Below, piece after piece: positions 3,881-63,956 of a stretch of DNA of 64,000 nucleotides. The notes under the pieces are model-generated. The model saw only the letters and a program-made list of their open reading frames with translations. It searched no databases and was not told the DNA's origin. Position 1 is the stretch's first letter; each line of letters begins with the position of its first letter. Source of the DNA: Candidatus Aquivivens invisus (GTDB taxonomy: Bacteria; Omnitrophota; Gorgyraeia; Aquiviventales; Aquiviventaceae); the NCBI GenBank assembly GCA_001804415.1, contig MHGA01000017.1, positions 18,390-82,389 on the forward strand, given 5' to 3'. The position numbers and the translations under genes were made by a program.

Positions 3881-3962
3881 GACACAAGACTCAAGACACA
3901 AGACCCAAGACTATGACTTGAGTCTTGAGTCTCGGGTCTTGAGTCCAACAACTGGGTCTTCC
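3881..3962. repeat. Imperfect inverted repeat built from CAAGACN heptamers (intergenic hairpin between the exonuclease-WYL gene and the MBL gene)
   Basis: gacacaagactcaagacacaagacccaagact-atg-acttgagtcttgagtctcgggtcttgagtc. Confidence 0.6.
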
Positions 3963-3967
3963 GATGG

Positions 3968-4789
3968 TCATTCGGCGACGGCCGTCGGCACGAAGTCCGC
4001 GGGAATCGTGTACCGGTTCCACGTGGGCTTGATGTCGAGGATGCGGTCAATCCGGAACTGGCGGACGTCCTGGCGGAGGTGGCAGTACCCCTCGAAATAC
4101 GGTTCGTTCACGGCGTACACATCGACCCGACGGACGCGTTGCGCCGATTCGCCGGCCTGCACGCTGGCGGAAAGGTACTCGATCTCCACTTGGAGCCGTT
4201 TCTGGAAGGCCTCCGCCAACACCTTGGCGATCATTGCGAGGTCGCGTTTTCGCTCAGGCCAGAAGACCGGAATGTTCAATTTCTCCGCTCCGTAGCGGCT
4301 GGTGGCGAAGAGCGTGCCGTGCTGTTTGCCATAATCAAACAATTCTTTGGTGAGGCGCACGTCGTCGAGACAGTATTGCTTGATGAGGTCGAACTTCCCT
4401 TCTTTAAACCAGGCCAGCGCCTGGAGCCCGCTGCCGCTCTTGCCCTTTCCCAGGGTGGCCTGACACAAACTCTCCAGGCTCACGCGATGACCCAGTTGCT
4501 TGACGGCATCGTCAATGATGTCCAAGACCGGAATCGTCGAAATAGGAAAGGGCAGATAGGGCGAGAGGACCGGCAGGTCGAAGCGTTTGATGTTGAAGCC
4601 GATCACCAGCTCCGCCTCCTGCAGGAGGGGGACGAGCTGACGCAGCTCGGCTTCCAGATACGTCTCGTAGTGATCCGCACCGTAGCGGTAGATCCCGACG
4701 ACCGAGACGCCGAGGAGCTCATGCCGACGCCCCTCGACTTCGCTGAACTCCCGCTGCGTTTCCAGATCGAGCACAATCCGTTCACCCAT
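3968..4789 (-). CDS. DnaQ-like DEDDy 3'-5' exonuclease fused to a C-terminal WYL domain
   Basis: Exo I is IVLDLETQ, Exo II is VIGFNIKRFDLPVL and Exo III is YCLDD. The C-terminal segment EPYFEGYCHLRQDVRQFRIDRILDI matches the WYL-domain core (WYLxGYCxLRxxxRxFRLDRI). Confidence 0.6.
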   Translation of the reverse strand: MGERIVLDLETQREFSEVEGRRHELLGVSVVGIYRYGADHYETYLEAELRQLVPLLQEAELVIGFNIKRFDLPVLSPYLPFPISTIPVLDIIDDAVKQLGHRVSLESLCQATLGKGKSGSGLQALAWFKEGKFDLIKQYCLDDVRLTKELFDYGKQHGTLFATSRYGAEKLNIPVFWPERKRDLAMIAKVLAEAFQKRLQVEIEYLSASVQAGESAQRVRRVDVYAVNEPYFEGYCHLRQDVRQFRIDRILDIKPTWNRYTIPADFVPTAVAE

Positions 4790-4811
4790 GGACGGAGGTC
4801 ATCCTGCGCGT

Positions 4812-4907
4812 GGTGACAAGCGACAAGGGACAAGCGACAAGTTCGATGTCACCGCTCACTCATCCGTGTTGACTTGTCGCCTGTCGCTTGTAACTTGTCC
4901 CTGTCAT
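4812..4907. repeat. Heptamer-repeat hairpin (GTGACAAGCGACAAGGGACAAGCGACAAG arm, ~30 nt spacer, complementary TTGTCGC/TTGTAAC/TTGTCCC arm)
   Basis: Direct reading. Lies between the stop of the cpATP-grasp gene and the start of the exonuclease-WYL gene. Confidence 0.65.
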
Positions 4908-6298
4908 GTGAGCATGAGGGCGCTGAGGAGGCCGCCGCCGCGGGAGACATTGACGACGGGGTCTTCCGAGAAGCGGCCGATCAGGCCGACCCCGGTCGAA
5001 TTGACAAAGAAGCCGGAGACCACGCGCCGCTGGACATCACAGACGCTCCCGCCATTGAGCCGGGGGAACCGTTCCGTCGCGATGCGGGCGCGCTCCTGCA
5101 CGACGTACCGGCTGCGCCCCCCGAGGGCTTTGTTGAGCGTGCGCTCCCACACGGATTGCAAGACGCAATCGCCCACGACCACCCCCTGCCCGCCGTAGAG
5201 GGTGTTGGGCTTGAGGACCAGACGATTCTTGTGCCGGCGGATATAGGACGCCAGCGCCACGCGCGCGCCTGACGGGTCGGATGCCTGGGTCTGGCGCACC
5301 AGCCTGGTCCACGGCAGATGGCGGCGGAAGAACCACCGCTGCTGCGTGGTAAAGTACCGGGCGTGGGTGGGATCGGTGAAGATCTCCCAGCAGGACTTCT
5401 GGTCGAATTCCCACAGCAGGCCGGAGATCAACCGGCCCTCCCGAATCGCCTGCCGCAGGGCCGCAAGCCGCCTCCCGTGGCGCTCCATGTCGAGAAATTC
5501 GTTGAGCTCGCAGTCACGATAGAGGAGATCCACCGGTTGGCCGTTCGCCACCAGGCCGCGCCGGCCCACGCGCAGCGCCCGGGGGTCGGCGACGACGGCC
5601 TTCAGGCCCCGCCCGGCGAAATACCTCGCCAGGCTTTCGAACTCGTCGGTGCCGGTCGTGAAATCGGTGTTCTCGATCAACGCGACACCTCGCAGCCGGC
5701 GTCCCAACCGGCGGGAGACGCTGACCAGTTCGTCGAGCAACAGGTCGCGCGGGTCAGGCATCGGCACCACCCGACGGCCGGGAAACGCCCGCTCGAAGGC
5801 ATCGCCCAGCACATCCAATACGATTGAGGCGGCCGCGGGGGCATAATGGATGCCGCCGACCCCGACGGTATTCGGCTCGAGCATCTGAAAGGTCTCGCGC
5901 CACCTCGCGTGGGAAAACGTCGCGTTGGAATCAAGCCGCCCGAGCAGCGCCAGAGGCCGGCTGTGGCGCTGGCCGGCCAGGAGAATCCATGAGGCCTGCG
6001 CCGCCGTCAAGGGCAGGATGCGCCGAATGGCGGGATCGCGGGCGTACAGGGCCGGCAGGCGGGCCAGCGCCTCGACCATCAGGCGCGCGGCGCCATGAAA
6101 GAACTTGACCTGGGCCGGGCTGAGGATCCAGGGCACGAGGGCGAGCTCAATCGTCTGCGGCTTGTTGTGGCCCGCGAGAAACCGAAGCCCCCGCACCGCA
6201 CTCAGTGCCTGAACGGCGTGCAAACGCCTCAGCAGCTCCTGCCGGCCAAGCCGCTTGACCGCTCGATGCAACGGCTCACACGAGAGATAATCAAGCAT
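4904..6298 (-). CDS. Circularly permuted ATP-grasp type 2 family protein (DUF404/DUF407-like amidoligase)
   Basis: LVLKPNTLYGGQGVVVG plus RYVVQERARIA and downstream glycine-rich segments resemble cpATP-grasp-2 proteins. The start is chosen at MLDYL (6296-6298). The ORF-track extension to 6571 crosses a palindromic element and is probably untranslated. Confidence 0.5.
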   Translation of the reverse strand: MLDYLSCEPLHRAVKRLGRQELLRRLHAVQALSAVRGLRFLAGHNKPQTIELALVPWILSPAQVKFFHGAARLMVEALARLPALYARDPAIRRILPLTAAQASWILLAGQRHSRPLALLGRLDSNATFSHARWRETFQMLEPNTVGVGGIHYAPAAASIVLDVLGDAFERAFPGRRVVPMPDPRDLLLDELVSVSRRLGRRLRGVALIENTDFTTGTDEFESLARYFAGRGLKAVVADPRALRVGRRGLVANGQPVDLLYRDCELNEFLDMERHGRRLAALRQAIREGRLISGLLWEFDQKSCWEIFTDPTHARYFTTQQRWFFRRHLPWTRLVRQTQASDPSGARVALASYIRRHKNRLVLKPNTLYGGQGVVVGDCVLQSVWERTLNKALGGRSRYVVQERARIATERFPRLNGGSVCDVQRRVVSGFFVNSTGVGLIGRFSEDPVVNVSRGGGLLSALMLT

Positions 6299-6415
6299 GT
6301 GAGTGGTGCTCAGGCTTGACAGATGATGACGCTGGAGAGATGGTTTCGCCTGGCATACCGCCAGCGGCGAGGGCTGACGTGCGGCCGGCGTCGCGGAGGC
6401 CGAGCGGGCATGGTG

Positions 6416-6453
6416 CCCCACATGCTTCGTTTTGCGAAGCAAAACGTGTGGGG
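6416..6453. repeat. Two-tier palindromic REP-like element, copy 1
   Basis: CCCCACA-tgcttc-GTTTTGC-gaa-GCAAAAC-g-TGTGGGG has an outer 7-bp stem and an inner 7-bp stem. A longer second copy lies at 23864-23920. Confidence 0.5.
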
Positions 6454-6634
6454 CGAGCGAGGCCGGAGCGCCGAGTGAGCGGAGCCACGCTGGGGCGAAG
6501 CGAACGTCCGGCCGAACGTGCAGCCCGAGCACAGCTGGCGGTCCGGACGAACACGCGGTAAGCCCTGTCAACCTTGACGATGACCGTCATGTGGGGATGC
6601 TATTGTAGCGGATGGCGGTTTCATTTAGTATACC

Positions 6635-8104
6635 ATGACCATGAGCAACGAACGCGTCCCCACCGCCCTCGTCCGGCAGCTCGTCAAGGACCTCAAGCGC
6701 CGCGGCGTCGATTACGCGGACGTGCGCTTCGAGCGCATCCTGCACGAGAGCCTCATCGTAGAGAACGGCCAGGTCAAGCCGATCAGCCTCTTCGAAACCG
6801 CGGGGGTGGGCATCCGCGTGCTCATCCGGGGCTCCTGGGGCTTCGCCTCCACCCCGCATCTGACACCCTCGTTCCTGCGCCGGGCCGCCACGCAGGCGAT
6901 CGACATCGCCAAGAGCTCTTCCTCTATTAATAGGAAGGTGGTCCGGCTCGCTCCGGTTGAGCCGGTCAAAGCGACGTGGCGCTCCTCGTGGCAGATCGAC
7001 CCCTTTGAGGTCCCCTTAAGCAAAAAGCTCGACTACCTCCTGTGGGCGGAGGCGACGGTCCGCGGCCCGAAACCGATCAAGCGGGTCACCGCCCACATGG
7101 ATTTCACCAAATCGACCAAGTGCTTCGCCTCCACCGAAGGGGCGGCGATCGAGCAGCGCGCCATCGAAAGCGGGGCCGGCCTGGAGGTGGTCGCCCAACA
7201 AGGCGAGGAGGTGCAGGTGCGCAGCTACCCCAACTCCCATCACGGGGCGCTGGCGCAAGCCGGCTTTGAGTACGTGAAACAGTTGGACCTCGTCGGAGGC
7301 GCCAAAACCATCCAACGCGAGGTGCTCCAGCTGCTGCGCACTACCCCTCCAAGGGCCGGCCAGACCACGCTGATCCTCGACCCCACGCAGATGGTCATGC
7401 AGCTGCATGAATCGTGCGGGCACCCGACCGAATTGGACCGTGCGCTGGGCCAGGAGCTCAGCTACGCCGGCGGCAGTTTCCTGACGCCGGAGCGCCTGGG
7501 GACGCTGCGCTACGGTTCCCCGCTCATCACGATCGTGGCGGATGCCACGGCGCCGGGCGGGGCCGGCACGTTCGGCTATGATGACGAAGGGGTGCCCGCC
7601 CAACGGACCGAGCTGGTGCGCGAAGGCGTGTTCGTCGGGTATCTCAGCTCGCGCGAATCGGCCGCCCGCTTGGGGTTGCGCCACAGCTCCGGCGCGATGC
7701 GCGCGGACGGGTGGGACGTGCCGCCGCTTGTGCGCATGACGAACGTGAACCTCGAGCCGGGCGAGGCGACCCTCGAGGACTTGCTGCACGATGTGAAACG
7801 CGGCTACCTGCTCTCGACGAATAAGAGCTGGTCGATCGACGATCAGCGGCTCAACTTCCAGTTCACCACGGAAATCGGATGGGAGATCGTCAACGGCAAG
7901 CTCGGGGCGGTGGTGAACAATCCGCTCTACACCGGCATCACCCCTCAGTTCTGGCAGCGCTGCACCGGCTTGTCGGATCGCAACACCTGGCGGCTGTGGG
8001 GGGTGCCGAATTGCGCCAAGGGCGAGCCGGTGCAATTGATGCACGTGGGGCATGGCGCGCCCTATGCCCGCTTTGATGGCGTGACGGTCGCTCCCGCCCG
8101 CTAA
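6635..8104 (+). CDS. tldD: Metalloprotease TldD
   Basis: 489 aa with HESCGHPTELDR and a GxC..GxP C-terminal region typical of the TldD/PmbA (peptidase U62) family. Confidence 0.8.
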   Translation: MTMSNERVPTALVRQLVKDLKRRGVDYADVRFERILHESLIVENGQVKPISLFETAGVGIRVLIRGSWGFASTPHLTPSFLRRAATQAIDIAKSSSSINRKVVRLAPVEPVKATWRSSWQIDPFEVPLSKKLDYLLWAEATVRGPKPIKRVTAHMDFTKSTKCFASTEGAAIEQRAIESGAGLEVVAQQGEEVQVRSYPNSHHGALAQAGFEYVKQLDLVGGAKTIQREVLQLLRTTPPRAGQTTLILDPTQMVMQLHESCGHPTELDRALGQELSYAGGSFLTPERLGTLRYGSPLITIVADATAPGGAGTFGYDDEGVPAQRTELVREGVFVGYLSSRESAARLGLRHSSGAMRADGWDVPPLVRMTNVNLEPGEATLEDLLHDVKRGYLLSTNKSWSIDDQRLNFQFTTEIGWEIVNGKLGAVVNNPLYTGITPQFWQRCTGLSDRNTWRLWGVPNCAKGEPVQLMHVGHGAPYARFDGVTVAPAR

Positions 8105-8110
8105 CGACCA

Positions 8111-8197
8111 TGGGACAAGCGACAAGAGACAAGCGACACGTCATAAGTGACCCATGTATGGCCTTGATACTTGTCGCTTGTCGCTTGTAACTTGTCA
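8111..8197. repeat. Heptamer-repeat hairpin (GGGACAAGCGACAAGAGACAAGCGACA arm / TTGTCGCTTGTCGCTTGTAACTTGTCAC arm) between tldD and pmbA
   Basis: Direct reading. The right arm overlaps the annotated 5' end of the pmbA ORF (MSLVACNLSL). Confidence 0.65.
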
Positions 8198-8203
8198 CTC
8201 GAA

Positions 8204-9550
8204 ATGATTGGTCACGCACGGTTGCTTGAGGAACTGGGAAAGCTGGTTGCGCGCTCGCCGGCCGATGCGACTAGCGTCTGCGCGGATGCCGAGCGGCTGC
8301 GCGTCTCGCGCTTCGCCCACGAGACGATCCATCAGGACCTCGTGCAGGAGAGCTTGAGCGTCACCATCAAGGTGATCGTCAACCGGCGGGTCGGGATCGC
8401 GGTCACCGACACCCTGGAGTACGCCAGCCTGCACCGGGGACTCCGCGCCGCACTCGAGATCGCCCGCCATGCCCCGCCGACCACCCTCCTAGCTCCTCTG
8501 CCAGGCCCCTACCAGCACATCACCCTGCAAGATTACGATCCGGCAACCGCCGAGATGCCCGCGCAGCATTTCGTCAACGTCTTGAAGCGGTTGCTGCAGA
8601 TCTGCCAAGGCGTCGGCGCCACACTCGCCGGCTCCTTCACCGTCTCGGAGGCGGAGCTGGCCGTCGCCAATTCCAACGGGGTGGCCTGTTACGCCGCGTC
8701 CACCGCCGCGGCCGCGAAGCTCGTGACCATGTATCGCAAGCTCTCGGGCTACGCCAGCGGGGTCGAACCGCACATCAACCACCTCGATGTCGAGGCGTTG
8801 TTGGAGCGCGCGCTGAAACTGTGCCTGCATCGACACGATCCCCTCACGCTGCCGACCGGCACCTATGAGGTCATCCTCGAGCCGGAGGCCGTCGCGGAGC
8901 TGGTGACGTGGCTCGGCTACATCGCCTTCGGGGCGAAAAGCTTCCAGGAGCGCACGAGCTGCCTGTCCGGCCGCATGGGCGAGGCGCTGCTCGCCCGGTC
9001 GATCACCATCAGCGACGACGGCAACGATCCGGCAGGGCTGCGTCAGCCGTTCGACTACGAGGGGGTGGCCAAGCAACGCGTCGCCCTCATTGACCGGGGC
9101 GTGGCCACCGGCATCGTCTATGATACGACCTACGGACATCTCTACGGACAGCCTTCCACGGGCCACGCCCAACCGCCTGATCAGCCCGACGGCCCGCTGC
9201 CGTTGCATCTCTTCCTTGAGCCGGGGACCACGCGACGAGAGGAGCTGATCCGCTCCTGCCGACGAGGGTTGCTGATTCCCCGCTTCCATTACGTCAGCGG
9301 CCTGCTGAACACCCGCGAAGCCCTGATGACCGGCCTGACCCGCGAGGGGACGTGGCTCATCGAAGACGGCAAGCTGCGGCACCCGGTGACCACGATGCGA
9401 TTTACCCAAAGCTTCCTGGAGGCCTTTGGGCACGTCCTGGGCGTGTCGAAGGAACGGCGGCTGATCGCCGACCCGGCTCAGGACGCCGGATGCGCCGTGA
9501 TGCCGACGGTGCGCCTGGCCAAGTTCCGCTTCACCGGCCGCTCCGCATGA
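8204..9550 (+). CDS. pmbA: TldD/PmbA-family metalloprotease (PmbA/TldE)
   Basis: Second U62-family paralog immediately after tldD. The start is placed at MIGHARLLEE (8204) rather than the repeat-encoded MSLVACNLSL. Confidence 0.7.
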   Translation: MIGHARLLEELGKLVARSPADATSVCADAERLRVSRFAHETIHQDLVQESLSVTIKVIVNRRVGIAVTDTLEYASLHRGLRAALEIARHAPPTTLLAPLPGPYQHITLQDYDPATAEMPAQHFVNVLKRLLQICQGVGATLAGSFTVSEAELAVANSNGVACYAASTAAAAKLVTMYRKLSGYASGVEPHINHLDVEALLERALKLCLHRHDPLTLPTGTYEVILEPEAVAELVTWLGYIAFGAKSFQERTSCLSGRMGEALLARSITISDDGNDPAGLRQPFDYEGVAKQRVALIDRGVATGIVYDTTYGHLYGQPSTGHAQPPDQPDGPLPLHLFLEPGTTRREELIRSCRRGLLIPRFHYVSGLLNTREALMTGLTREGTWLIEDGKLRHPVTTMRFTQSFLEAFGHVLGVSKERRLIADPAQDAGCAVMPTVRLAKFRFTGRSA

Positions 9551-10752
9551 CGAGCACACAGCAGACAGCACACAGCAGACAGCACAGCGCATTGCTGTGT
9601 GCTGTGTGCTTGGTGCTGTGTGCTGTCTCAGGGTGCGCGGTCCTCGGGACGATCAAGCAGCCGCTGGCGCAGGCGGTGGCGGCTGGAGGGGAACTCCTTG
9701 ACGATGGGTATGCCGACGTGGCGGGCGCCCTCCACATCCACACGACGTACTCCCATGACGCGCATGGGACGTTTGAGGACGTGGTGCGGGCGGCCAACGC
9801 GCAGCAGCTCGACTACGTCATCCTCACGGAGCACAACACCCTCCAGCCGCTTCGCGAGGGCAAGCAGGGCTGGCATGGGGCGGTTCTCGTGCTGATCGGG
9901 ACTGAGCTCTCGACTCGAGGCGGGCATTATCTGGCGTTGAACGTCACTGAGGAGATCGACCGTCATCAGCTCACCACCCAACAGATCATCGATGAGGTCG
10001 CTCGCCAGGGAGGGTTGGGATTCATCGCCCATCCGTATTTCAAGAAGGGGCGCTGGAAGGACTGGACGGTGAGGGGCTTCACCGGCATCGAGGCGTATAA
10101 CGTCGCGCACGACACGTTGGATGAGAACAAGCTCCGCCTGGCGCTGTGGACGCTCACCGCCCCGCCGGAGCCGTTTTACCTCTCGATCATCGACCGGCCG
10201 TACGATCCGCTGCGCGCTTGGGATGAGCTCGTCGCGCGGCACGGCAAGGTGGTGGGGATCGGTGCGACCGACGCGCATGAATTCCACCTGTGGGGCCTGA
10301 AGTTCGCCCCCTATGACATCATGTTCCAGATGGTCCGCACGCACCTCCTGGTGCCCTCGACGCCCCTCACCCCTGACCTGGTCTATGAGGCCCTGCGCCA
10401 GGGACACGCCTATTGGGAACTCGCCCTCGTGGCTGATGCGCAGCGCGGTGTCCGCTTTTTCGCCCACGACGGCCAGCGAGTCCTCGGGGTGATGGGAGAT
10501 GAGATCCGCCTCGAGCCGAACCTGCACCTGACCGCGATCCTCCCACAACCAGCACTCCTGACGCTGTTCAAAGACGGGCAGGCGATCGCGACGGCTTCCG
10601 AGAAAAGCTGGGACGTGGCGGTGAGCGATCCGGGCGCCTATCGCCTCGAGGCGTCGCTCAACGGCAAACCCTGGCTCTTCACCAACCCGATCTACGTCCG
10701 CCCCGCACCCAATGACGAGCCAACAGCACCAAGCACACAGCACACAGAATAA
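9547..10752 (+). CDS. PHP-domain metal-dependent phosphoesterase, predicted lipoprotein
   Basis: HIHTTYSHD PHP motif. The N-terminus MTSTQQTAHSRQHSALLCAVCLVLCAVSGC has a hydrophobic core and an AVSGC lipobox. The ATGA overlap with the pmbA stop is at 9547-9550. Confidence 0.6.
   Translation: MTSTQQTAHSRQHSALLCAVCLVLCAVSGCAVLGTIKQPLAQAVAAGGELLDDGYADVAGALHIHTTYSHDAHGTFEDVVRAANAQQLDYVILTEHNTLQPLREGKQGWHGAVLVLIGTELSTRGGHYLALNVTEEIDRHQLTTQQIIDEVARQGGLGFIAHPYFKKGRWKDWTVRGFTGIEAYNVAHDTLDENKLRLALWTLTAPPEPFYLSIIDRPYDPLRAWDELVARHGKVVGIGATDAHEFHLWGLKFAPYDIMFQMVRTHLLVPSTPLTPDLVYEALRQGHAYWELALVADAQRGVRFFAHDGQRVLGVMGDEIRLEPNLHLTAILPQPALLTLFKDGQAIATASEKSWDVAVSDPGAYRLEASLNGKPWLFTNPIYVRPAPNDEPTAPSTQHTE
9553..9637. 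repeat. Inverted repeat (CACAGCAGA)n / (TGCTGTGTG)n overlapping the 5' coding end of the PHP lipoprotein gene
   Basis: agcacacagcagacagcacacagcagacagcacagcgcattgctgtgtgctgtgtgcttggtgctgtgtgctgtc. Confidence 0.6.
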
Positions 10753-11752
10753 CGGTTGGCGGCCTACCGCTCGATGGCTCCCTCTGTCTGCTGTGTGCTG
10801 TCTGCTGGGTGCTCCAATGGGGTGCGCTCACGTCCCCTTCCGCGCCGCTCGACCGGCCCAGCCGCTCTCCGCTGAGATCGCGGCCTACTACGACTACCCG
10901 GCGCGCCCCCAAGAAGTCACGCGCCAACTCACCAAGGACACGCCGCGGGTCACCGAATGGCTCATGCAGTTTCCGCTCTCCGCCTCAGGATTCGAGCCGA
11001 CCGAGCCGGTTGTGGAGTTCGAGTGGTTCGAGTCGAAGCAACCCGGCCAGCGGCCTGCGATTCTGTTCAACCCGATCCTCGGCGGCGACTACCCGCTTGA
11101 GCACGGCATCTGCCGATACTTCGCCGCGCGCGGATGGCATGTCGCGCTCGTCCACCGCAAGACGCTCAAGGTCTCTCCTGAACATCCGATCGAGCGTTTG
11201 GAGCTGCTGCTCCGGCAGGCCGTGGTGCGCATGCGACAGGTCGTCGACTGGATGGAGGGCGAGGGGCGGGTGGATCCGGAGCGTCTGGGAGGTTTCGGGA
11301 TCAGCATGGGCGGCATGGCCGGCGTGATCGCCGCGGCCCTTGACCCAAGGTTGAAGGCGCATGTGGTGGTCTTGGCCGGCGGTCCCATTGCGACGATCCT
11401 TGCCACCTCCCGCGATCCGCTGCTGGCCAAGCCTCGCCGACGGTACCTCGAGCACAACCAGATGGACCTGGCGACCTTTGAGGGGCGCGTGCGGGACACG
11501 GTGAAGACGGACCCCGTCGCCCTGGCGCCGTACGTCGACCCGTCACGGATGTTCATGGTGATTGCCCTGGCCGACCACACGATCGGCCGAACCAATGCGA
11601 TCCGGCTGTGGGAAGCCGTGGGACGACCCGAGGCGACCTTCATCCCGCTGGGGCACTACACGTCCTACTTGTCCCTCCCCTACCTCAAGCGCGCCAGCCT
11701 CCGATTCTTCCGAAAGACGCTTGGCAGTCCTTCCACCGACGAGCTACAATAG
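10712..11752 (+). CDS. Alpha/beta-hydrolase fold protein (dienelactone-hydrolase-like), putative exported
   Basis: GISMGG nucleophile elbow. The N-terminus MTSQQHQAHSTQ..LSAVCCLLGAPMGC is encoded by a second CA/TG-rich hairpin module. The true start is uncertain. Confidence 0.5.
   Translation: MTSQQHQAHSTQNNGWRPTARWLPLSAVCCLLGAPMGCAHVPFRAARPAQPLSAEIAAYYDYPARPQEVTRQLTKDTPRVTEWLMQFPLSASGFEPTEPVVEFEWFESKQPGQRPAILFNPILGGDYPLEHGICRYFAARGWHVALVHRKTLKVSPEHPIERLELLLRQAVVRMRQVVDWMEGEGRVDPERLGGFGISMGGMAGVIAAALDPRLKAHVVVLAGGPIATILATSRDPLLAKPRRRYLEHNQMDLATFEGRVRDTVKTDPVALAPYVDPSRMFMVIALADHTIGRTNAIRLWEAVGRPEATFIPLGHYTSYLSLPYLKRASLRFFRKTLGSPSTDELQ
10718..10812. repeat. Second CA-rich/TG-rich inverted-repeat module (paralog of 9553-9637)
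   Basis: ccaacagcaccaagcacacagcacacag...ctctgtctgctgtgtgctgtctgctgggtgc. Confidence 0.55.
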
Positions 11753-11759
11753 GACTCCC

Positions 11760-17186: not shown

Positions 17187-17258
17187 TGTATTATAGCTTG
17201 ACAATTCCGTCCGAATGACGAGAATACACTCAGATCATTCGCTCGTCTTCTCTATATT

Positions 17259-58083: not shown

Positions 58084-58119
58084 TCTCCTCGTTCTTGTCA
58101 CTTGTCGCTTGTCACTTGT
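58084..58119. repeat. Single-arm heptamer repeat (CTTGTCAC TTGTCGC TTGTCAC TTGTTGC TTGTTAC) overlapping the purM stop
   Basis: It encodes the purM C-terminal ..QQVTSDK*. Confidence 0.6.
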
Positions 58120-59110
58120 TGCTTGTTACGCTCGATTGTGCCAACGGGCCATGCGGCAACCCCAAGACGCCGAAGGGTCGCAAGGACCGAGGTGGACGCC
58201 CGGGGCCGACACGACAAGGCCATGCCCACACCCATGTTGAACGTCCGGAACATCTCGTCCGTCGAGATCCTGCCCGCCCGCTGGATCGCGCCGAAGAGCG
58301 GCGGCACCGTCCATCGACCGGGCTGCCAGGTCACACGCAGCTCGGGGCGCTTCGCGACCAGCGATGGCAGCCGGCGCGCCAACCCGCCGCCGGTCACGTG
58401 CGCGATCGCCGTCACCGGAATCCGTTTGAGCAATGCGAGAACCGGTTTGACATAGATGCGCGTCGGCGTCAGCAACTCACGCCTCCATCGTTTCAGCTCC
58501 GAGAGGCCGAAGACCTTCCGCACGAGCGAGAACCCGTTCGCATGGATGCCGGACGACGCCAGGCCGATGACAATATCGCCTGCCCGCACCGCCGAGCCAT
58601 CGATCAGTTTCCGACGCTCCACGACGCCCACACAGAATCCCGCCACATCATAGTCCCCGTTGCGATAGACCCCCGGCATCTCCGCGGTCTCGCCGCCGAC
58701 CAACGCGCAGCCGCTTTGCTGACAACCCTTGACGATGCCGGCGATCAGCTCTCGCATCCGTCGCGGATTCAGCTTCCCCACCGCGAGATAATCGAGAAAA
58801 AACAACGGCCGCGCGCCGTAGACCACCAGGTCGTTCACGTTCATCGCCACGAGGTCGATTCCGATGCCTGCGTGGTCGCCCAACAACTCCGCCACCTTCA
58901 GTTTGGTGCCGACCCCGTCCGTGGAGGACACCAGCACCGGATCGCGCAATCCGCTCGGCAACCGCACCAGCGACGCAAACTGCCCTCTGTCCGGCAGCAC
59001 CTCCGGTCCGTGCGTCGACCGGATCAGCGGCGCCAACCGCGCCAGCGTCCGATCCGCCGCCTCGATATCCACCCCCGCCTGCCGATAGGTCGTTGCGGTC
59101 ACGATGTCCT
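58098..59110 (-). CDS. purM: Phosphoribosylformylglycinamidine cyclo-ligase (AIR synthetase)
   Basis: YRQAGVDIEAADR.. is the PurM N-domain and GGETAEMPGVY the C-domain. The start is probably a GTG near 59110. Confidence 0.8.
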
Positions 59111-59437
59111 CAACACGCCGGCGGCTTCCAACAGGCGTTGCGAGCCCTGTCGCGCCGCCTGCGCGATCGCTGAGGGATCCATACGACGTCCCCACTGCCG
59201 TTCCCACACCGCAAGATCACGCTGCAGCTCTGCCAACAGGCCTTGCTGTTCAATATCGCATGACGGCACCGCCCACTCGGTGAAGTATTTGCTTTCCCGG
59301 AGCACCGGCAGGGCTTGTTGTTGGTTCGCCTGTTCCGCGCACCAGGCAATCCGGTTGAGGTTCGAGGCCAACCCTCCCAGCTGGATTGAAACGCTGTCCC
59401 GCTGGTACCTCGCTCGACGCGTTTCCCAATCGTTCAT
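59099..59437 (-). CDS. Hypothetical protein (112 aa)
   Basis: ORF MNDWETRRARYQRDSV.. between purF and purM, with no recognisable motif. Confidence 0.35.
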   Translation of the reverse strand: MNDWETRRARYQRDSVSIQLGGLASNLNRIAWCAEQANQQQALPVLRESKYFTEWAVPSCDIEQQGLLAELQRDLAVWERQWGRRMDPSAIAQAARQGSQRLLEAAGVLRTS

Positions 59438-59775
59438 GATCGTTGTAGCAGGCGGCGGACGATCACGTCGACGCGCTGCCGAATCGTGCGATCCTGAATC
59501 TCCAGATTTGGATTCACTCGCGGACGGATGTTGATGAGCGCAGCATACCGGACGACCTGCTCGGCCGGCAGCCAATCCGCGCCCCACACGTTTTCGCGTC
59601 GACTGCCATCTTCAATCAGCACCGCTTCGCAGTCGGCATGGAACTCCCCACCGCCGACCAGGACGCCCCGTCGAATATCCACGGCCACCTTGATGTACGA
59701 TTCGTGGACTTCAAGCATTCCTTTGATCTGCTCATCCGTCGCTCGCTCACTCAGCAGATGGATCATCCTGTTCAT
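59434..59775 (-). CDS. Hypothetical protein (113 aa)
   Basis: ORF MNRMIHLLSERATDEQIKGMLEVHESYIKVAVDIRRGVLVGGGEFHADCEAV.. with no confident family. Confidence 0.4.
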   Translation of the reverse strand: MNRMIHLLSERATDEQIKGMLEVHESYIKVAVDIRRGVLVGGGEFHADCEAVLIEDGSRRENVWGADWLPAEQVVRYAALINIRPRVNPNLEIQDRTIRQRVDVIVRRLLQRS

Positions 59776-59789: not shown

Positions 59790-61208
59790 TTAGCAGCGGC
59801 CTTGGCCGGAGAATTTCTCCAGCGCGAACTTGTCGCCCTCCCCACCGAAGGGGATCGGGTACGTCCCGCTCCAGCAGGCGGTGCAGTAGTTGCCGGGCGG
59901 CTTGCTGACGGCCTTCAGCATCCCCTCCAGCGAGAGGTAGCCCAGCGTCGTCGCCCCGATGAACTTGCAGATCTCCTCGACGGACAGCCGGTTGGCGATG
60001 AGCTCCTTGCGCGTCGGGAAATCGATGCCGTAGAAGCACGAGTGCTTCGTCGGCGGGCAGCTGATGCGCATGTGGATCTCCTTCGCGCCAGCCTCCCGCA
60101 GGCTTTTGACGCGGGCCCGCGTCGTCGTCCCGCGGATGATCGAGTCGTCGATCAGCACGAGCCGCTTGCCCTTGACGATCGAGCGGATCGGATTGAACTT
60201 CACGCGCACCTTCAGGTCGCGGATCTCCTGCGCCGGCTGGATGAACGTGCGGCCGACGTAGTGGTTCCGGGTCATCCCCATCATGAACGGAACTTTCGAC
60301 TCGAGACTGAAGCCCAACGCGGCGAAATTCCCGGAGTCCGGGATCGGCATGACCAGATCCGCCTGCGCGGGATGCTCGCGCGCCAATTGCCGCCCGAGGT
60401 TCATGCGAACCGCCTGCACGTTTTCGCCAAAGATGTTCGAGTCCGGCCGCGCGAAGTAGACATGCTCAAAGAGACAGTGTGAGGGCTTAATCTCCTCGTT
60501 CTTGAAGGGATGCAGCGAGCGCAGACCGCCGGCGGTGATGACGACGATTTCGCCAGGCTCCACGTTGCGCACAAATTTGGCGCCGATGAGATCCAGCGCG
60601 CAGGTTTCCGAGGCCAGCACGTACGTCTTGTTGAGCCGCCCGATGCACAGCGGGCGGAATCCCTGCGGGTCGCGGCAGCCGATCAGCGCGCGCTCCGTGA
60701 GGAACAGCAGCGAAAACGCCCCTTTCAGCAGCCGCACGCATTCGACCAGATCGTCCTCGATCTCCTTGTTCGTCGACCGAGCCAGCAGGTGCAGGATGAT
60801 CTCGCTGTCGACGGTGGTTTGGAAAATCGAGCCGTTCGCCTCGAGCTGTTGGCGCAGCTCGTACGCGTTCACCAGGTTGCCGTTGTGCGCCACCGCCAAG
60901 GCACCCTTGGCGCAGCTGACCACCAGCGGCTGCGAATTCTTGAGGGTACTGGAGCCGGTGGTGGAGTAGCGCGTGTGGCCGATCGCCATGCGGCCGGGCA
61001 GCGCGCGCAGCGACTCTTCGCTGAACACCTCCGACACCAGGCCCATGCCTTTGTGGGTGCGCATCTCGCGGCCGTCGAACGTGACGATGCCCGCCGCCTC
61101 CTCGCCACGGTGCTGCAACGAATATAATCCCAGATACGTCAACCGCGCCGCGTCCCGGTGCCCGTAGATGCCGAAGAGCCCGCACGAATGCTTGACGGCC
61201 TCATCCAT
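59790..61208 (-). CDS. purF: Amidophosphoribosyltransferase
   Basis: CGLFGIYGH is the Ntn Cys1, and there is a PRTase domain with a C-terminal Cys cluster. Confidence 0.9.
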   Translation of the reverse strand: MDEAVKHSCGLFGIYGHRDAARLTYLGLYSLQHRGEEAAGIVTFDGREMRTHKGMGLVSEVFSEESLRALPGRMAIGHTRYSTTGSSTLKNSQPLVVSCAKGALAVAHNGNLVNAYELRQQLEANGSIFQTTVDSEIILHLLARSTNKEIEDDLVECVRLLKGAFSLLFLTERALIGCRDPQGFRPLCIGRLNKTYVLASETCALDLIGAKFVRNVEPGEIVVITAGGLRSLHPFKNEEIKPSHCLFEHVYFARPDSNIFGENVQAVRMNLGRQLAREHPAQADLVMPIPDSGNFAALGFSLESKVPFMMGMTRNHYVGRTFIQPAQEIRDLKVRVKFNPIRSIVKGKRLVLIDDSIIRGTTTRARVKSLREAGAKEIHMRISCPPTKHSCFYGIDFPTRKELIANRLSVEEICKFIGATTLGYLSLEGMLKAVSKPPGNYCTACWSGTYPIPFGGEGDKFALEKFSGQGRC

Positions 61209-61710
61209 GCGACGTGCCCCTCCGGATCACCCATCGCTCAAATCCCGTGCCGAGGAGAAAGTAGTACAGCGCGTTCGCCGCGACATTCGTCACCAGGAGG
61301 ACCGTCTGGGAGGCGATCGCGGCTCCGCCGATCAGCACCAGCAAGGTGAGCGGAGAGACCACCACAAACATCGACATCATCCACCGCGACATGAAGGACT
61401 GCATCATCGCCGCTGACTCGCTCCATAGCCCGCGGTGCTCCGCCATCACCACCATGACGGAAAGCGGAATGGCCAACGGAAGATAAATCATCACCAGCCA
61501 CGCGCCGGCGGAAAGCGGCATCCGCGACTTGACCGCCTTCCAGAGGCTCCACATGCTCAGGCACACCAGGATTCCAATGGTGTTCAAGATGCCAAACATG
61601 ACGGTGGGTTGAACCCACTCCTTCCCCATGCTGACCCAGCGAAGCGTGATGAACCCTGTCAGGGGAATGACGCTCCACAGTCCAAGCACAAAGAGGAGCA
61701 ATCGCCGCAT
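61201..61710 (-). CDS. Integral membrane protein of unknown function (4-5 TM)
   Basis: [21 protein letters not shown].. with several hydrophobic helices. Confidence 0.45.
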   Translation of the reverse strand: MRRLLLFVLGLWSVIPLTGFITLRWVSMGKEWVQPTVMFGILNTIGILVCLSMWSLWKAVKSRMPLSAGAWLVMIYLPLAIPLSVMVVMAEHRGLWSESAAMMQSFMSRWMMSMFVVVSPLTLLVLIGGAAIASQTVLLVTNVAANALYYFLLGTGFERWVIRRGTSHG

Positions 61711-63956
61711 TACGCGTGCGCTCCACCTGCGAGGCCTGCTCGCCACACGCGGCTCAACTGCTCCACCGTGAGGTCGATCCGCGGCCGGATCACCAGGCGG
61801 GTGCCCCCAACACGACCAAGCGTTGTCAGAGGAACACGGACGCGTTTCGCCAACGCCTCGATACGCTCCTGGTGATATCGCTCGCACGTCACGACAATCC
61901 GCCCGGCCGACTCGCCGAACAGGAGCGCATCTGGACGAAGTGACAGGTGACAGGTGACAGGTGACAGGTCAAGCGCTGCACCAATGAGATGCTCCGGCTC
62001 CGTGATGCAGCATTCGGCCAGCGCCACGGCCAGGCCGCCTTCGGAGCAATCGTGCGCGGATTTGATCAGTCCTCGATGCGCGAGCTCCAGCATGAGGTGA
62101 CCAAGCCGCCGCTCGCTCGGCAGATCGCACGCCGGCGGCCTGCCCTGTTTGCGGTGGTGGATGAGCTTGAGGTATTCGCTGCCGCCAAGCTCTTCCCTCG
62201 TCTCGCCGAAGAGCAGGATCGCGTCACCCTCCTGCTTGAAGCTCGCCGTGATCGGCTGCATTCCGCATTCCGCATTCCGCATTCCGCATTCGATCAACCC
62301 CACCATCCCGATCACCGGCGTCGGGTCGATGGCGCCGCGCGGGCTCTCGTTGTAGAAGCTCACGTTCCCGCCGGTGACGGGCGTGCCGAACGCCCGGCAC
62401 GCCTCGGCGATCCCGCGCACGCATTCCTTAAACTGCCACATCACCTCAGGGTCTTCCGGATTGCCGAAGTTCAGGCAGTCGGTGACCGCAAGCGGCTTCG
62501 CCCCGACGCACACCAGATTGCGCGCGGCCTCCGCCACCGCCAGCTTGCCCCCCTCATACGGATCGAGATAGCAGTAGGTGGCGTTCGCATCGGTCGTCGC
62601 CGCCAACAGCGCGCCGGTTCCCTTCACCCGCAAGACCGCGGCGTCCGCCCGGCCCGGCAACACGACGGTGTTGGTCTGGACCATGTGGTCGTATTGTTCA
62701 AAGACCAGGGCTTTGCTGGCGATGGTCGGTGCGCCCAGCAGTGCCAGCAGCGCCTCGCCATAGTCCCTTGGCTGAGAGACGGCCCGTAACGAGAGCCGCT
62801 GCGCTTTCGAGAGATACGCGGGACGCCTGGTGGGGCGTCGATAGACCGGAGCCTCGTGCGTCAGCGCGCCCACCGGAATCTCCGCGACGACCTGGTCGCC
62901 GTCCTTGACCCGCATGAGGTTTCCGTCCTTCACGCGTCCGATCTGAACCGCATGCAAGCCCCACTTGGCGAAGCGCCGCGCAACCTGCGCTTCCCGTCCG
63001 CGCTTGACAATGAGCAGCATGCGCTCCTGCGATTCGGAAAGCATCACCTCAAAGGGCGTCATCCCCTCTTCCCGGCGGGGGACCTTGGCCACGTCGATCT
63101 CGATGCCGCAGCGGCCTCGTGAAGCCGTCTCGCAGGTCGAGCACGTCAGGCCCGCCGCGCCCATGTCTTGAATGGCGATGACGTCACCGGTCGCCAGGAC
63201 CTCCAGGGTCGCTTCGAGCACGCACTTTTCCGCAAACGGATCCCCGATCTGCACCGCCGGCCGATCAGCCTCAGAGCCGTCGGTGATTTCCCGCGAGGCG
63301 AAGCTCGCGCCCCCCAATCCGTCCCGCCCGGTGGAGGAGCCGACATACACGACCGGGTTGCCCGCGCCGCGGGCTTTCGCCACGGCGATTGAGCCCCTCG
63401 GCACGATCCCGATGCACATGACGTTGACCAGCGGATTCTCGCGGTACGTCTCATCGAAGGCGATTTCCCCGCCGATGGTCGGCACCCCGACTGCGTTGCC
63501 GTAGTCGGCGATCCCTTTGACGACCCCGCCAAACAGAAACCTCGTGCGGCCCGATCCGTTCAACGGGCCGAACCGCAGGCTGTCAAACAGCGCAATCGGC
63601 CTGGCCCCCATCGTGAAGATGTCGCGCAGAATCCCTCCGACACCGGTCGCCGCTCCGGCGTGCGGCTCGACGGCGGACGGATGGTTATGCGACTCGATTT
63701 TGAACGCCACGCCTAACCCATCTCCGATGTCAATGACCCCTGCGTTCTCCTCGCCCGCACGAATGAGAACGCCCTTCCCTCTCGTCGGAAATGTCTTGAG
63801 GTAGATCTTGGAACTCTTGTACGCACAATGTTCGGACCATTGGACGCTGAAGATGCCGAGTTCCGTCGTCGTCGGAGCGCGTCCCAGGATCTTCACAATG
63901 CTCCGGTATTCGTCCTGCGTGAGGTTGAGTTTCTTCAGCAACGCCGCGTCAGGCAT
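61710..63956 (-). CDS. purL: Phosphoribosylformylglycinamidine synthase subunit PurL (FGAM synthase II)
   Basis: [26 protein letters not shown].., tandem AIR-synthase-like domains and the DxGxGG motif GDPF.. Confidence 0.85.
61940..61967. repeat. (GTGACAG)x4 tract inside the purL coding sequence, in frame
   Basis: It encodes ..[11 protein letters not shown].. within PurL. Confidence 0.65.
62258..62291. repeat. (GCATTCC)x5 tract inside the purL coding sequence, in frame
   Basis: It encodes ..[13 protein letters not shown].. within PurL. Confidence 0.65.

Follow-up and report, generated by a model that had tools for sequence, protein, structure and literature searches.

Heptanucleotide tandem arrays, mostly in inverted pairs, at gene junctions and within genes of an Omnitrophota bacterium

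Described repeat systems and their likeness to the arrays

The cyanobacterial STRR heptamers are described as 7-bp repeats forming hairpins within operons, for example between hupS and hupL, and roles in transcript stability or translational coupling have been proposed for them (PMC2670836). A preliminary description of the DNA studied here (64,000 nucleotides, the window) likened its repeats to STRR heptamers, and the comparison is apt: tandem 7-nt units, several families per genome and many dispersed, mostly intergenic loci are found in both. The arrays differ in their host, which belongs to the Omnitrophota and not to the filamentous cyanobacteria, and in their units, which are GNGACAR, AGCACAC, GGAATGC and others. 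Their arms are uniformly short (4-5 units), whereas copy numbers have a long tail in a sample from other phyla, of which about a quarter is cyanobacterial. In addition, the arrays here are also documented in frame within conserved proteins.

In Xanthomonas, GGGAATC repeats most commonly have four units, and 89-93% are intergenic, near the 3' end of the upstream ORF and mostly with co-oriented genes (Rehm et al. 2015, PMC4692102). Each genome carries 70-75 convergent inverted pairs capable of forming stem-loops, and gene positions of the arrays are not conserved between related species (PMC4692102). The heptamer arrays, the inverted-pair architecture, the location near 3' ends of upstream genes and the shifting of positions between species are all shared with the window. 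However, the G-rich Xanthomonas unit was investigated for G-quadruplex formation, whereas the units here lack G-tracts; one family dominates there, whereas several coexist here; and the focus of that study was elsewhere than in-frame coding insertions, which occur here (PMC4692102).

Heptanucleotides are, as summarized in PMC4679880, the most abundant class of long SSRs in most genomes, with polymerase slippage over a 7-nt contact as the proposed cause (Mrazek et al. 2007). The 7-nt unit is shared with the arrays; the survey, as represented in that summary, concerns simple direct repeats and leaves the inverted pairing, uniform arms and inter-locus sharing of families seen here unexplained. 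The TAACTGA repeats of marine Beggiatoaceae, cyanobacteria and Bacteroidetes are intergenic and occur in 2-6 copies directly ahead of start codons, also within ribosomal-protein operons; 169 sets are direct and one indirect, a role in translation was suggested, and the mechanism of spread is unknown (MacGregor 2015, PMC4679880). The window also has short heptamer arrays by start codons, including in a ribosomal-protein operon, but with diverse units and a predominance of inverted pairs instead of one unit that is almost always direct.

Borg tandem repeats are lineage-specific and fast-evolving, enter ORFs and add new peptide segments (PMC9879509). The likeness lies in lineage specificity, fast evolution and entry into ORFs; the Borg host is an archaeal extrachromosomal element and its repeats are direct only, whereas the 7-nt units here are read in all three frames. 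REP, BIME and REPIN elements are like the arrays in that they are abundant and extragenic, form hairpins and occur within operons. REP elements stabilise upstream mRNA and are single imperfect palindromes of conserved sequence with no internal 7-nt tandem structure, and REPIN copies share a spacer and depend on a RAYT transposase. In contrast, the spacers here are unrelated and the window contains no RAYT. With unrelated spacers and no target-site duplications at the array copies compared in the window, the suggested resemblance to REP/BIME elements and MITEs did not hold.

Arrays in the window and their position relative to genes

TRF and an inverted-repeat scan of the window located arrays at 17 loci, of which 11 are hairpins and 6 are single. 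Every locus of the preliminary description exists and was recovered, some with slightly revised coordinates, and five had been missed (9553-9626, 10717-10814, 23870-23914, 12688-12724 and 61940-61969); its observation was real and under-counted. Two elements listed there as hairpins, 54566-54607 and 62258-62291, are single arrays. The loci are as follows (dG in kcal/mol; strand is given for single arrays).

3881-3945: hairpin of GACACAA/CAAGACN heptamers (arms 3881-3911 and 3917-3945, 8-nt loop; dG -36/-42, z -6.9) in the intergenic stretch that separates the MBL-fold gene start (3878) from the WYL gene stop (3968).
4812-4907: GACAAG-family hairpin (arms 4815-4842 and 4872-4907, ~30-nt unique spacer; inverted-repeat scan, folding); an arm contains the stop codon (4904-4906) of the upstream 464-aa gene.
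8111-8199: GACAAG-family hairpin filling the gap between tldD (stop 8104) and pmbA (start 8204).
9553-9626: AGCACAC/AGCAGAC hairpin (TRF, inverted-repeat scan; dG -53, z -9.6) beginning 2 nt past the pmbA stop; an ORF from 9547 reads through.
10717-10814: AGCACAC-type hairpin (TRF, inverted-repeat scan, folding); 5' arm in the final codons of the PHP gene (stop 10752), next start (10817) 2 nt beyond the 3' arm end.
12688-12724, plus strand: single GGAAGCN/AGCCGGA array (TRF) forming the LytB/IspH C-terminus as well as the yjbQ start (ATG 12719) and its ribosome-binding region.
13140-13222: hairpin of GTTCGAA units (dG -38/-40, z -6.1) in the convergent gap between the stops of yjbQ (13132) and the C45 peptidase gene (13221).
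14376-14482: hairpin, (GTGACAG)4 / (CTTGTCR)4, 48-nt spacer (inverted-repeat scan, folding); in mRNA sense, the ceramidase stop lies in the 5' arm and the C45 peptidase start (14438) in the spacer, and the 3' arm encodes 10 residues of the C45 peptidase signal peptide.
23870-23914: hairpin with two 10-mer units per arm, TGCTTCGTTT / CGAAGCAAAA (dG -34, z -7.6), 50 nt 3' of the DAO gene stop; the heptamer-hairpin architecture with another period.
33240-33413: inverted GACAAG-family arms (33240-33269 and 33382-33413) with a 112-nt host spacer; in sense, one arm begins 5 nt past the bamA stop, the skp ribosome-binding site and start lie in the spacer, and the other arm supplies the ACPLSLVPCRS portion of the Skp signal peptide.
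37530-37563, minus strand: single array, (GACAAGG/GACAAGC)5 in mRNA sense (TRF), taking up most of the 43-nt rpsR-rplI gap (37521-37563) and reaching the rplI ribosome-binding site.
43474-43540: hairpin of octamer units, GGGTTTGC... / CAACGCGC... (dG -42/-33), filling the 66 nt that separate the transketolase C-terminal subunit gene from ispE.
54573-54598, minus strand: single GAGACAG array (54566-54607 as first listed; dG -3.6, z -0.1) encoding the 10-residue C-terminal tail of RpiB; on the other strand it is of the GACARG family.
55570-55660: hairpin, (GTGACAG)4.3 / (CTTGTCR)5 (TRF, folding); the sense 5' arm includes the tsaC stop (55643), and the LMW phosphatase gene begins (55565) 4 nt beyond the 3' arm end.
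58094-58127, minus strand: single CAAGYGA array (TRF) encoding the extra PurM C-terminal KQQVTSDK-stop; purD is next.
61940-61969, minus strand: single in-frame (CCTGTCA)4.3 array in purL, encoding LSPVTCHLS at PurL site 2.
62258-62291, minus strand: single perfect in-frame (GGAATGC)4.9 array, equivalent to (GCATTCC)4.9 on the opposite strand, in the purL coding sequence, encoding 11 residues at PurL site 1.

The repeat pattern is far above chance. About 0.03 arrays were expected, 30 Markov surrogates yielded one array in total, and the GACARGNGACARGNGACARG pattern had 20 matches in the window versus 0 in 100 shuffles (34 versus 0.05 for its two-unit version). Period 7 accounts for 16 of the 17 tandem arrays with a period of 5-12 nt, and arms are ~31 nt, mostly of four to five tandem 7-nt units. 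At least eight unrelated unit sequences coexist in the window, alongside 8-nt and 10-nt periods. An inverted partner lies within 200 nt of 11 of the 17 heptamer arrays (both arms of the merged 9553-9626 hairpin counted) and a direct partner within that distance of none. Folding energies of the 11 hairpins range from -30 to -83 kcal/mol (z -3.7 to -9.6), and no match to the array hairpins was found in Rfam or among known RNA families.

With gene starts taken from automated gene calls, the 5' arm overlaps the upstream stop or begins at most 9 nt from it in 9 of the 11 hairpins. In 7 of 10 co-directional hairpins the 3' arm ends at most 6 nt from the next start, or the start is in the spacer; this count leaves out the start that follows the 9553-9626 hairpin, as its position in the PHP gene is ambiguous. 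Genes directly 3' of a 3' arm have weaker anti-SD pairing (-1.3 versus -4.6 kcal/mol; Mann-Whitney p = 0.009, n = 7 versus 52). The arm described earlier as the 5' end of pmbA has that position in the longest ORF (TTG 8171), but three independent gene calls place the start at 8204. A terminator role, also suggested earlier, was not borne out, and the hairpins are not intrinsic terminators: no T-run follows the hairpin sequences examined, no terminator-like site in window positions 1-20000 coincides with an element, and most hairpins are inside conserved operons. No sense-strand folding bias was consistent across hairpins, and two pair far better antisense (-62/-55 versus -44/-35 kcal/mol).

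Translations confirmed that three genes end in VTSDK-stop, as had been claimed: purM (...QQVTSDK), tsaC (...VKDVTSDK) and the ceramidase-like gene (VTSDK). By sequence comparison, the tails of PurM, TsaC, RpiB and GlyA are extensions relative to orthologues. The 22-residue C45 peptidase start containing an arm and the ACPLSLVPCRS preceding AWA in Skp were likewise correctly described, and the Skp arm is a 9-residue insertion missing from other relatives. The two purL arrays lie within internal segments and preserve the reading frame; relative to T. thermophilus PurL 3VIU, each segment has 7 additional residues (21 nt, three units). PurL arrays of different species have different units, and orthologous arrays have the same length. 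Stop codons are avoided by the in-frame PurL arrays and hairpins, the hairpins keep strong pairing (z -2.8 to -6.3), and TGA-bearing units just past stop codons soon end the extended ORF. Arrays in coding sequence appear only in stop-free, frame-preserving versions. The surviving arrays occur in tight operon junctions, positions just past stops, signal peptides and two indel-tolerant PurL segments. The earlier proposal of persistence only where insertion is tolerated agrees with the C-terminal extensions and the Skp insertion; its list of sites was too narrow, as the two arrays in the PurL interior indicate.

Relatives and recurrence between loci

The window belongs to the MAG Omnitrophica WOR_2 RIFCSPHIGHO2_02_FULL_63_39. 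Twelve near-identical contigs covering parts of the window, most from other samples or assemblies (MEGAHIT-style k141/k127 contigs, Rifle scaffolds, NCBI and JGI records), carry identical arrays with unchanged unit number. The arrays are therefore neither artefacts nor, to judge from these contigs, phase-variation switches. Among related Omnitrophota (26 loci; PurL identity of 66% or more, except 60% in L155), heptamers made up 67 of 73 arrays, a density of 2.2 per 10 kb, against 0.05 per 10 kb in PurL relatives that are more distant (57 loci). The window and clade together have 3.5-5 units in 72 of 85 arrays.

Comparison of orthologous loci, which the preliminary description had proposed, showed that presence at orthologous junctions varies between species, but the near-identical contigs had no unit-number polymorphism. 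Array-free members exist within the array-bearing clade. Gap lengths point to insertions and not to conserved elements: 77 nt separate tsaC from the phosphatase gene in the window versus 10-18 nt in three relatives, and L217 has a bamA-skp gap of 15 nt that carries an AGGAGG site. In both L216 and the window, the ribosome-binding site and start of skp lie between the arms; this pair is kept as pure arrays in two species (Skp 84% identical) with a spacer diverged beyond alignment.

A few unit families recur within each genome, and families are common to non-orthologous loci in different genomes. GACARG-type arrays occur at 9 loci of the window, the AGCACAC family at three loci of L133 (with a variant arm, ACAGCAT, paired with one of these), and four CAGAAGA arrays over three loci of L134. 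The arms of 8111-8199 and 4812-4907 are identical at 27/31 and 30/36 positions and both include an odd CTTGTAA unit, with spacers at chance level; those of 55570-55660 and 14376-14482 are identical at 29/32 and 30/36. Unit variants even come in the same order in arms from different loci, and the spacers consist of unrelated host sequence. Different hairpins also show the same imperfect complement between their two arms, GACAGG opposite CTTGTC, which implies coordinated copying of the two arms; no known mechanism accounts for this.

Origin and possible function

We consider it somewhat probable that these are STRR-type heptanucleotide long SSR arrays, mostly in inverted pairs, generated by slippage and inter-locus copying and kept only where tolerated. 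The 7-nt periodicity would arise by replication slippage, and the few unit families of a genome would be spread and homogenised by inter-locus copying (ectopic template switching or gene conversion), which would need no transposase. As the comparisons show, arrays land in or beside genes and purifying selection retains the harmless ones alone. Each inverted pair may form a 25-35-bp stem, looping out the inserted sequence and probably holding the upstream stop adjacent to a downstream start without a Shine-Dalgarno site, so translational coupling would survive. The stems probably also influence mRNA processing or stability. The uniform arm length counts against this explanation, as free slippage does not predict it, and so does the coordinated copying implied by the shared imperfect complement; PurL arrays that switch units at constant length are not explained by simple slippage.

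Selection for the stem could account for the retained bamA-skp pair and the strong pairing within coding sequence. These observations also favor a tentative and rather unlikely alternative, that the hairpins are selected intercistronic RNA devices (RNase III-type processing sites, 3'-end stabilisers or enforced translational-coupling switches) whose arms were recruited from a genome-wide heptamer vocabulary to enclose junctions or starts. The stems of 25-35 bp exactly between stop and start codons, the two hairpins that surround the start codons and ribosome-binding sites of skp and the C45 peptidase gene, the lack of SD pairing in downstream genes, the narrow arm length and the same roles proposed for STRR agree with it. 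However, relatives differ in presence at orthologous junctions and some have no arrays, the transcribed strand has no consistent folding advantage, single unpaired arrays and in-frame protein insertions would make no sense, and cleavage in the coding-sequence arm would destroy the skp and C45 peptidase mRNAs.

Near-identical arms down to unit-variant order, families shared by non-orthologous loci and fast gain and loss between species would also be expected of MITE/REPIN-type miniature elements with heptamer arrays as terminal inverted repeats and a transposase supplied in trans from elsewhere in the genome. This is improbable, as copies have unrelated spacers without target-site duplication, the interior at skp and the C45 peptidase gene is host sequence (ribosome-binding site, start codon, signal peptide), single arms are common, and no Y1 or RAYT transposase is in the window. 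The sole transposase-like ORF there (48203-49051, weak DDE hit) belongs to a strain-variable and unrelated segment. A role as DNA or RNA binding sites for a multimeric protein, with four to five 7-nt units recognised and with families tracking the factor of each genome, would suit the uniform unit number, the genome-specific dominant families and the constant length of PurL arrays that change unit; it is likewise improbable, with at least eight unrelated units and two other periods in one window, no candidate factor identified, and locations within protein loops and signal peptides that are hard to rationalise. Nothing was found in favor of short-read sequencing or assembly artefacts, a negligible prospect given the identical arrays in other samples and the preserved reading frames.

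The earlier interpretation is partly supported. The unit sequences and the host lineage alone are new; the kind of element has been described, as heptameric long SSRs and as the inverted heptamer arrays of Xanthomonas (PMC4692102). As far as the sequences compared indicate, the arrays are a class of repetitive DNA specific to one lineage, a subclade of the Omnitrophota, the source organism being from groundwater.

Census of the heptamer arrays

Tandem Repeats Finder returned period-7 arrays of 3.4-5.0 copies at all loci named in the preliminary description, which confirms that the named arrays exist. A lag-matching scan over periods 5-12 identified 17 arrays in the window; their period is 7 nt in 16 cases and 8 nt in the remaining one. 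Thirty first-order Markov surrogate sequences together contained a single array (0.03 per window). The loci counted previously (more than 12) are real, but the count was too low, as the window holds 17 loci in 64 kb. The three-unit pattern GACARGNGACARGNGACARG had 20 matches in the window and none in shuffles, and its two-unit form had 34 matches versus 0.05 in shuffles.

Table. Elements overlooked in the preliminary description, identified by Tandem Repeats Finder and an inverted-repeat scan (window positions).
9553-9626, hairpin
10717-10814, hairpin
23870-23914, hairpin
12688-12724, single array
61940-61969, single array

An inverted partner was found within 200 nt for 11 of the 17 heptamer arrays counted, and a direct partner for none of the 17. 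Most arrays are paired in the inverted-repeat scan, with arms 25-37 nt long and 77-91% complementary. The 11 hairpins have folding energies of -30 to -83 kcal/mol (z -3.7 to -9.6). Two loci first described as hairpins, 54566-54607 (dG -3.6, z -0.1) and 62258-62291, proved to be single arrays instead; the former reads (GACAGGA)n on the opposite strand and is a member of the main (GACARG) family.

The dominant family is GNGACAR, also written GTGACAG, GCGACAA, GGGACAA or AGGAGAC, which occupies nine loci in the window. The AGCACAC family occupies two loci, and CAAGACN, GTTCGAA, GGAAGCN and GGAATGC one locus each; the common architecture is also seen in one octamer hairpin and one 10-mer hairpin. 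Across the window and related loci, 72 of 85 arrays hold 3.5-5 units, and the six longer entries (9.5-11 units) each represent a hairpin whose arms were merged across a tiny loop. The arms of separate loci are near-identical, including the order of unit variants. For example, the arms of the hairpins at 4812-4907 and 8111-8199 are identical at 27/31 and 30/36 positions and have an odd CTTGTAA unit in common, and those at 14376-14482 and 55570-55660 are identical at 29/32 and 30/36 positions. The spacers are at chance-level identity in global alignment (15/29 and 18/46) and resemble each other in neither orientation, and inspection of the flanks of the compared hairpins revealed no target-site duplication. 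The GACAAG arm comes first in all five GACARG-family hairpins of the window and in the one found in L216, a related locus covering bamA-skp and rpsR-rplI. A general rule for the first arm, such as A-rich or stop-containing, is broken by the other unit families.

An assembly artefact, which had been named as a possible explanation, is excluded for practical purposes, because the same arrays occur without indels in 12 contigs (NCBI, ENA and JGI records; 99.5-100% identity) that cover parts of the window and come mostly from other samples or assemblies. Only two SNPs fall inside elements: the first affects a spacer, the second the stop codon of purM. The latter (window 58099, contig L003) changes TGA to TTA within the heptamer array, and the gene is called six codons longer. 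No unit-number polymorphism was found among these consensus assemblies, and phase-variable contingency SSRs, whose unit number varies, are therefore rejected at this time-scale.

The same contigs differ elsewhere in the window. A 2.4-kb segment with two ORFs (48212-50644) is missing from the otherwise near-identical contigs L004 and L006 and is probably a strain-variable insertion element. The ORF at 48203-49051 has weak sub-threshold matches to DDE transposases (IS240/IS1), the second ORF has a weak match to a ClpP-like protease, and inverted repeats lie at 50616-50797. Positions 50706-50740 are hypervariable in L002 and L006, with many substitutions and small indels between flanks more than 99.9% identical. 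In L004 a 29-nt deletion in ispE (window 42907-42935), where the gene is called at 192 aa only, is either a frameshifting population variant or an assembly error.

Placement relative to genes and turnover among relatives

The gene map was taken from the gene calls of matching contigs; no recorded gene has exactly the product of ORF 18765-20912, and 18.1-23.4 kb is mapped from ORFs alone. Elements sit in co-directional gaps within operons, where they occupy 10 of about 21 gaps of at least 40 nt, and in one convergent gap; none lies in the divergent, promoter-bearing gaps of the window. Only gene ends, signal peptides and two segments of PurL show overlap between an element and coding sequence. 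The tolerated places proposed previously, namely gaps, signal peptides and extreme C-termini, were correct as far as they went, but the list lacked the two internal PurL segments.

In 9 of 11 hairpins, read in the direction of the mRNA, the 5' arm either overlaps the stop codon of the preceding gene or starts no more than 9 nt from it. For five of the 10 co-directional hairpins, at most 6 nt separate the end of the 3' arm from the following start codon; at the C45 peptidase gene and skp, two further cases, the start lies inside the spacer and the 3' arm is translated. The PHP start after the hairpin at 9553-9626 is ambiguous. An ORF starting at 9547 (9547-9640), joined to the pmbA stop by an ATGA overlap, reads through the entire AGCACAC hairpin and encodes a lipoprotein-like signal peptide, MTSTQQTAHSRQHSALLCAVCLVLCAVSGC, with its polar region from one arm and its hydrophobic region from the other; one gene caller gave an alternative start at 9610. 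With gene starts taken from automated calls, the seven genes directly 3' of a 3' arm have weaker anti-Shine-Dalgarno pairing than the other 52 (mean -1.3 vs -4.6 kcal/mol; Mann-Whitney p = 0.009, n = 7 vs 52).

A separate motif, TAGTATAC, occurs four times in the window (1539-1546, 6626-6633, 27111-27118 on the reverse strand and 49057-49064) against 0.01 expected. All four sites are in gaps that resemble operon starts and hold no heptamer arrays, and the one at 6626 ends 1 nt short of the tldD ATG (6635). The motif may be a -10-like promoter box, possibly of leaderless or very short-leader mRNA.

The array content of 26 relative loci (PurL at least 66% identical, 60% in L155; 307 kb) was compared with that of 57 more distant PurL loci (655 kb). 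In the relatives, 67 of the 73 arrays of any period are heptamers (2.2 per 10 kb), versus three heptamer arrays in the distant loci (0.05 per 10 kb). Presence among the 26 is patchy, with no arrays in seven of them (L139, L144, L147, L148 and L151-L153) and arrays in L133-L138, L140-L143, L145, L146, L149, L150 and L154-L157. Every genome has its own dominant unit family, some families are common to several genomes at non-orthologous loci, and families also recur within L133, L134, L135, L141 and L146.

A comparison of orthologous loci, as the preliminary description suggested, showed that the species differ in occupancy. In the window a hairpin occupies the tsaC-phosphatase gap, which measures 77 nt, versus 10-18 nt and no hairpin in L133-L135. 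Between rpsR and rplI there are 43 nt and an array in the window and 110 nt and arrays in L216, and the genes overlap in L217, a second related locus. The clearest case of junction change between species is bamA-skp. In L217 the gap is 15 nt, with an AGGAGG site and no arms. L216 and the window each have two arms, GACAAG after the stop codon of bamA and CTTGTC within the Skp signal peptide. The 105-112 nt between these arms are host sequence that includes the skp ribosome-binding site and start codon and encodes the n- and h-regions of the signal peptide. The spacers of L216 and the window have diverged past alignment, and the arms are still pure. Array-derived tails are extensions relative to orthologues in PurM (+KQQVTSDK), TsaC (+TVKDVTSDK) and RpiB, and in GlyA of relatives.

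Further features of gene content were observed at these loci. The window has a single 438-aa lpxC-fabZ fusion gene (31450-32766; Pfam LpxC and FabA/FabZ), which is kept in L216 and L217. Three extra small genes in the window pur operon (59099-59766 and 61201-61710) are missing from its syntenic counterparts in L133-L135. One, of 169 aa, separates purL from purF; the other two, a DUF5674 gene and one of 112 aa, lie between purF and purM. Two of these extra genes gave no match in Pfam.

The purL gene carries two in-frame arrays, (GGAATGC)4.9 at 62258-62291 (site 1), encoding 11 residues, and (CCTGTCA)4.3 at 61940-61969 (site 2), encoding LSPVTCHLS. Compared with T. thermophilus PurL 3VIU, the window protein has seven additional residues at each site, corresponding to three units (21 nt). 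In related Omnitrophota, homologues of PurL are 738 to 863 aa long. Among the relatives site 1 is empty, holds one arm or holds an entire translated hairpin, for example GCTCAGG...AGCCCAG read as GSGLRAQ...PRAQSPEP. The length of site 2 is usually constant at 24 codons and its units vary by species (CCTGTCA, CAATCCG, CGATCCA, TCAGAAG, AATCCAA, CAGTCCA and CGACAAT). In these PurL sequences the complementarity of the second arm is imperfect where an exact complement would make TGA, and the hairpins with such imperfect arms fold with z of -2.8 to -6.3. Inteins were also noted: several related PurL proteins (P0004, P0058, P0072 and P0082) are about 1260-1280 aa, with intein and LAGLIDADG Pfam matches, and the ribonucleotide reductase gene at the left edge of the window (1063-4890 of contig L010, equal to window -2303 to 1524) contains an intein with a LAGLIDADG domain.

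Origin and role of the arrays

The elements are lineage-specific heptamer arrays, most of them inverted pairs, which are gained and lost between species, and the survivors are found only in frame-preserving, stop-free or gene-end positions. The following account of their origin and retention is, on balance, probable. The 7-nt period would arise from slippage; according to a passage in PMC4679880, this was proposed for heptameric long SSRs by Mrazek 2007. Copying between loci is required by the sharing of families and the identity of arms, and may proceed through template switching or gene conversion. Retention would then depend on tolerance. On the mRNA each pair would loop out the inserted sequence, so that stop and start codons which formerly abutted or overlapped would stay next to each other. 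Such looping-out would explain how tightly coupled operons, with downstream genes that now have no Shine-Dalgarno site, can tolerate insertions of 60-100 nt.

The main rival holds that the stems themselves are selected as coupling, processing or stabilising devices. The retained bamA-skp pair and the uniform arm length speak for it, but the turnover between species and the existence of single arrays do not. Folding of both strands of the 11 hairpins also leans against selected stems, as it gave a mixed result with no consistent advantage for the transcribed strand: the antisense strand was favoured about as often as the sense strand, and in two GTGACAG/CTTGTCR hairpins the non-transcribed strand pairs markedly better through G-T wobbles. 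We regard selection of the stems as rather unlikely, although it deserves serious attention. Mobility of a MITE or REPIN-like kind is very improbable. A resemblance to REP/BIME elements had been proposed, and a known MITE considered, but the interiors are unrelated and there is no target-site duplication. In REP/BIME/REPIN elements a shared palindrome and linker are expected; here the spacers are unrelated and the arms are tandem arrays rather than single palindromes. A MITE is rejected as there are no flanking direct repeats, and two of the unrelated interiors are host translation-start regions. No RAYT (Y1 transposase) lies within the 64-kb window, and the search for transposases or nucleic-acid enzymes among its unannotated ORFs gave one weak DDE match only, in the strain-variable segment. 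That the arrays are bound by proteins is hardly to be expected. It is also doubtful, but conceivable, that a clade-specific trans-acting process writes and re-writes the arrays, overwriting sequence without change of length, with the stems acting as Shine-Dalgarno-independent coupling devices. Each arm would be built to a set length of about 31 nt (4.5 units) with heptamers drawn from a limited repertoire particular to the genome, and in most cases two matching arms would be placed in inverted orientation on either side of a stop/start junction; PurL site 2 would be an example of overwriting at constant length. If true, it would represent a previously undescribed bacterial mechanism of sequence turnover and would offer a handle on the decades-old question of the origin of STRR-type heptamers.

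Transcription termination, also suggested in the preliminary description, did not hold. No T-run follows the stems, as one would after the G+C-rich stem of an intrinsic (Rho-independent) terminator. None of the five terminator-like sites in 1-20000 is at an element, and this number is lower than in shuffles (5 vs 13.5). An Rfam scan at gathering scores detected tRNA-Gln only, with no match to the elements; with E up to 1, hairpins in 3800-14600 gave only sub-threshold matches to models of eukaryotic miRNA precursors, which represent generic long hairpins.

Relation to known heptameric repeats

The feature is real, striking and under-counted, and it belongs to an already described kind rather than a new one. 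The elements show the three characteristics of the generic class of heptameric long SSRs or STRR-like repeats: an excess of period 7 with units in at least three tandem copies, dispersed recurring families and mainly intergenic placement. The hosts of STRR1-3 are heterocystous cyanobacteria, and the units of these families, from Mazel et al. 1990, are reportedly CCCCAGT, TTGGTCA and CAACAGT. The window elements are not STRR1-3 in the strict sense, as their units are GNGACAR, AGCACAC, CAAGACN, GGAATGC and others and their host is an Omnitrophota MAG. The likeness to STRRs remarked on earlier agrees at the level of architecture, since cyanobacterial STRRs, with a 7-bp unit, fold into hairpins in the hupS-hupL gap, where a role in stability or translational coupling has been proposed (PMC2670836). 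The GGGAATC repeats of Xanthomonas, in which four units are commonest, are 89-93% intergenic, sit close to where the preceding ORF ends and form 70-75 convergent inverted pairs per genome (PMC4692102). Convergent inverted pairs by the 3' end of the upstream ORF are likewise found in the window. In the Xanthomonas G-quadruplex heptamers every unit has a tract of at least three G, which enables four units to form a G4; no window unit has GGG in all copies, and GGGACAA alternates with GCGACAA. A third published case of matching architecture comes from Beggiatoaceae, in which heptamer arrays adjoin start codons (PMC4679880).

A degenerate 20-mer for the GACARG family was scanned against 185,579 species (596 Gb) and gave at least 120 matching stretches, with about 140 expected by chance by our own arithmetic, so that the number of stretches is in itself uninformative. 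The window's own genome is absent among the matches listed. The loci among these listed matches contain 296 arrays of period 7, and no other period exceeds 18. An inverted partner accompanies one third of the arrays, and the same syndrome is seen in cyanobacteria, Chloroflexota (L037 and L078), Ignavibacteriales and Pyrinomonadaceae. For example, L037, from a Thermomicrobiales MAG, has five inverted heptamer pairs within 8 kb (499-7713). Its units differ (AGTGGCA, AGCCGGT twice, GGCGGAA and CGAGCTT), and the architecture is the same in an unrelated phylum. No relevant paper linking Omnitrophica to heptamers or to tandem repeats was found in a search of open-access PubMed Central full text and bioRxiv preprints.

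In practical terms, the arrays distort gene calls in these MAGs and lead to false N-terminal extensions, C-terminal tails and apparent signal peptides. To our knowledge, the STRR, Xanthomonas GGGAATC and Beggiatoaceae TAACTGA families have been known for years with their origin and function unsettled. The Omnitrophota subclade provides a compact comparative system for the origin and role of heptamer families, with array-rich beside array-free relatives, orthologous junctions with and without hairpins, and two sites in the essential enzyme PurL that hold in-frame arrays or entire hairpins with units differing by species. With this system, gain, loss and unit switching could be traced on a phylogeny, a co-varying factor could be sought, and preservation of translational coupling by the stems could be tested directly.
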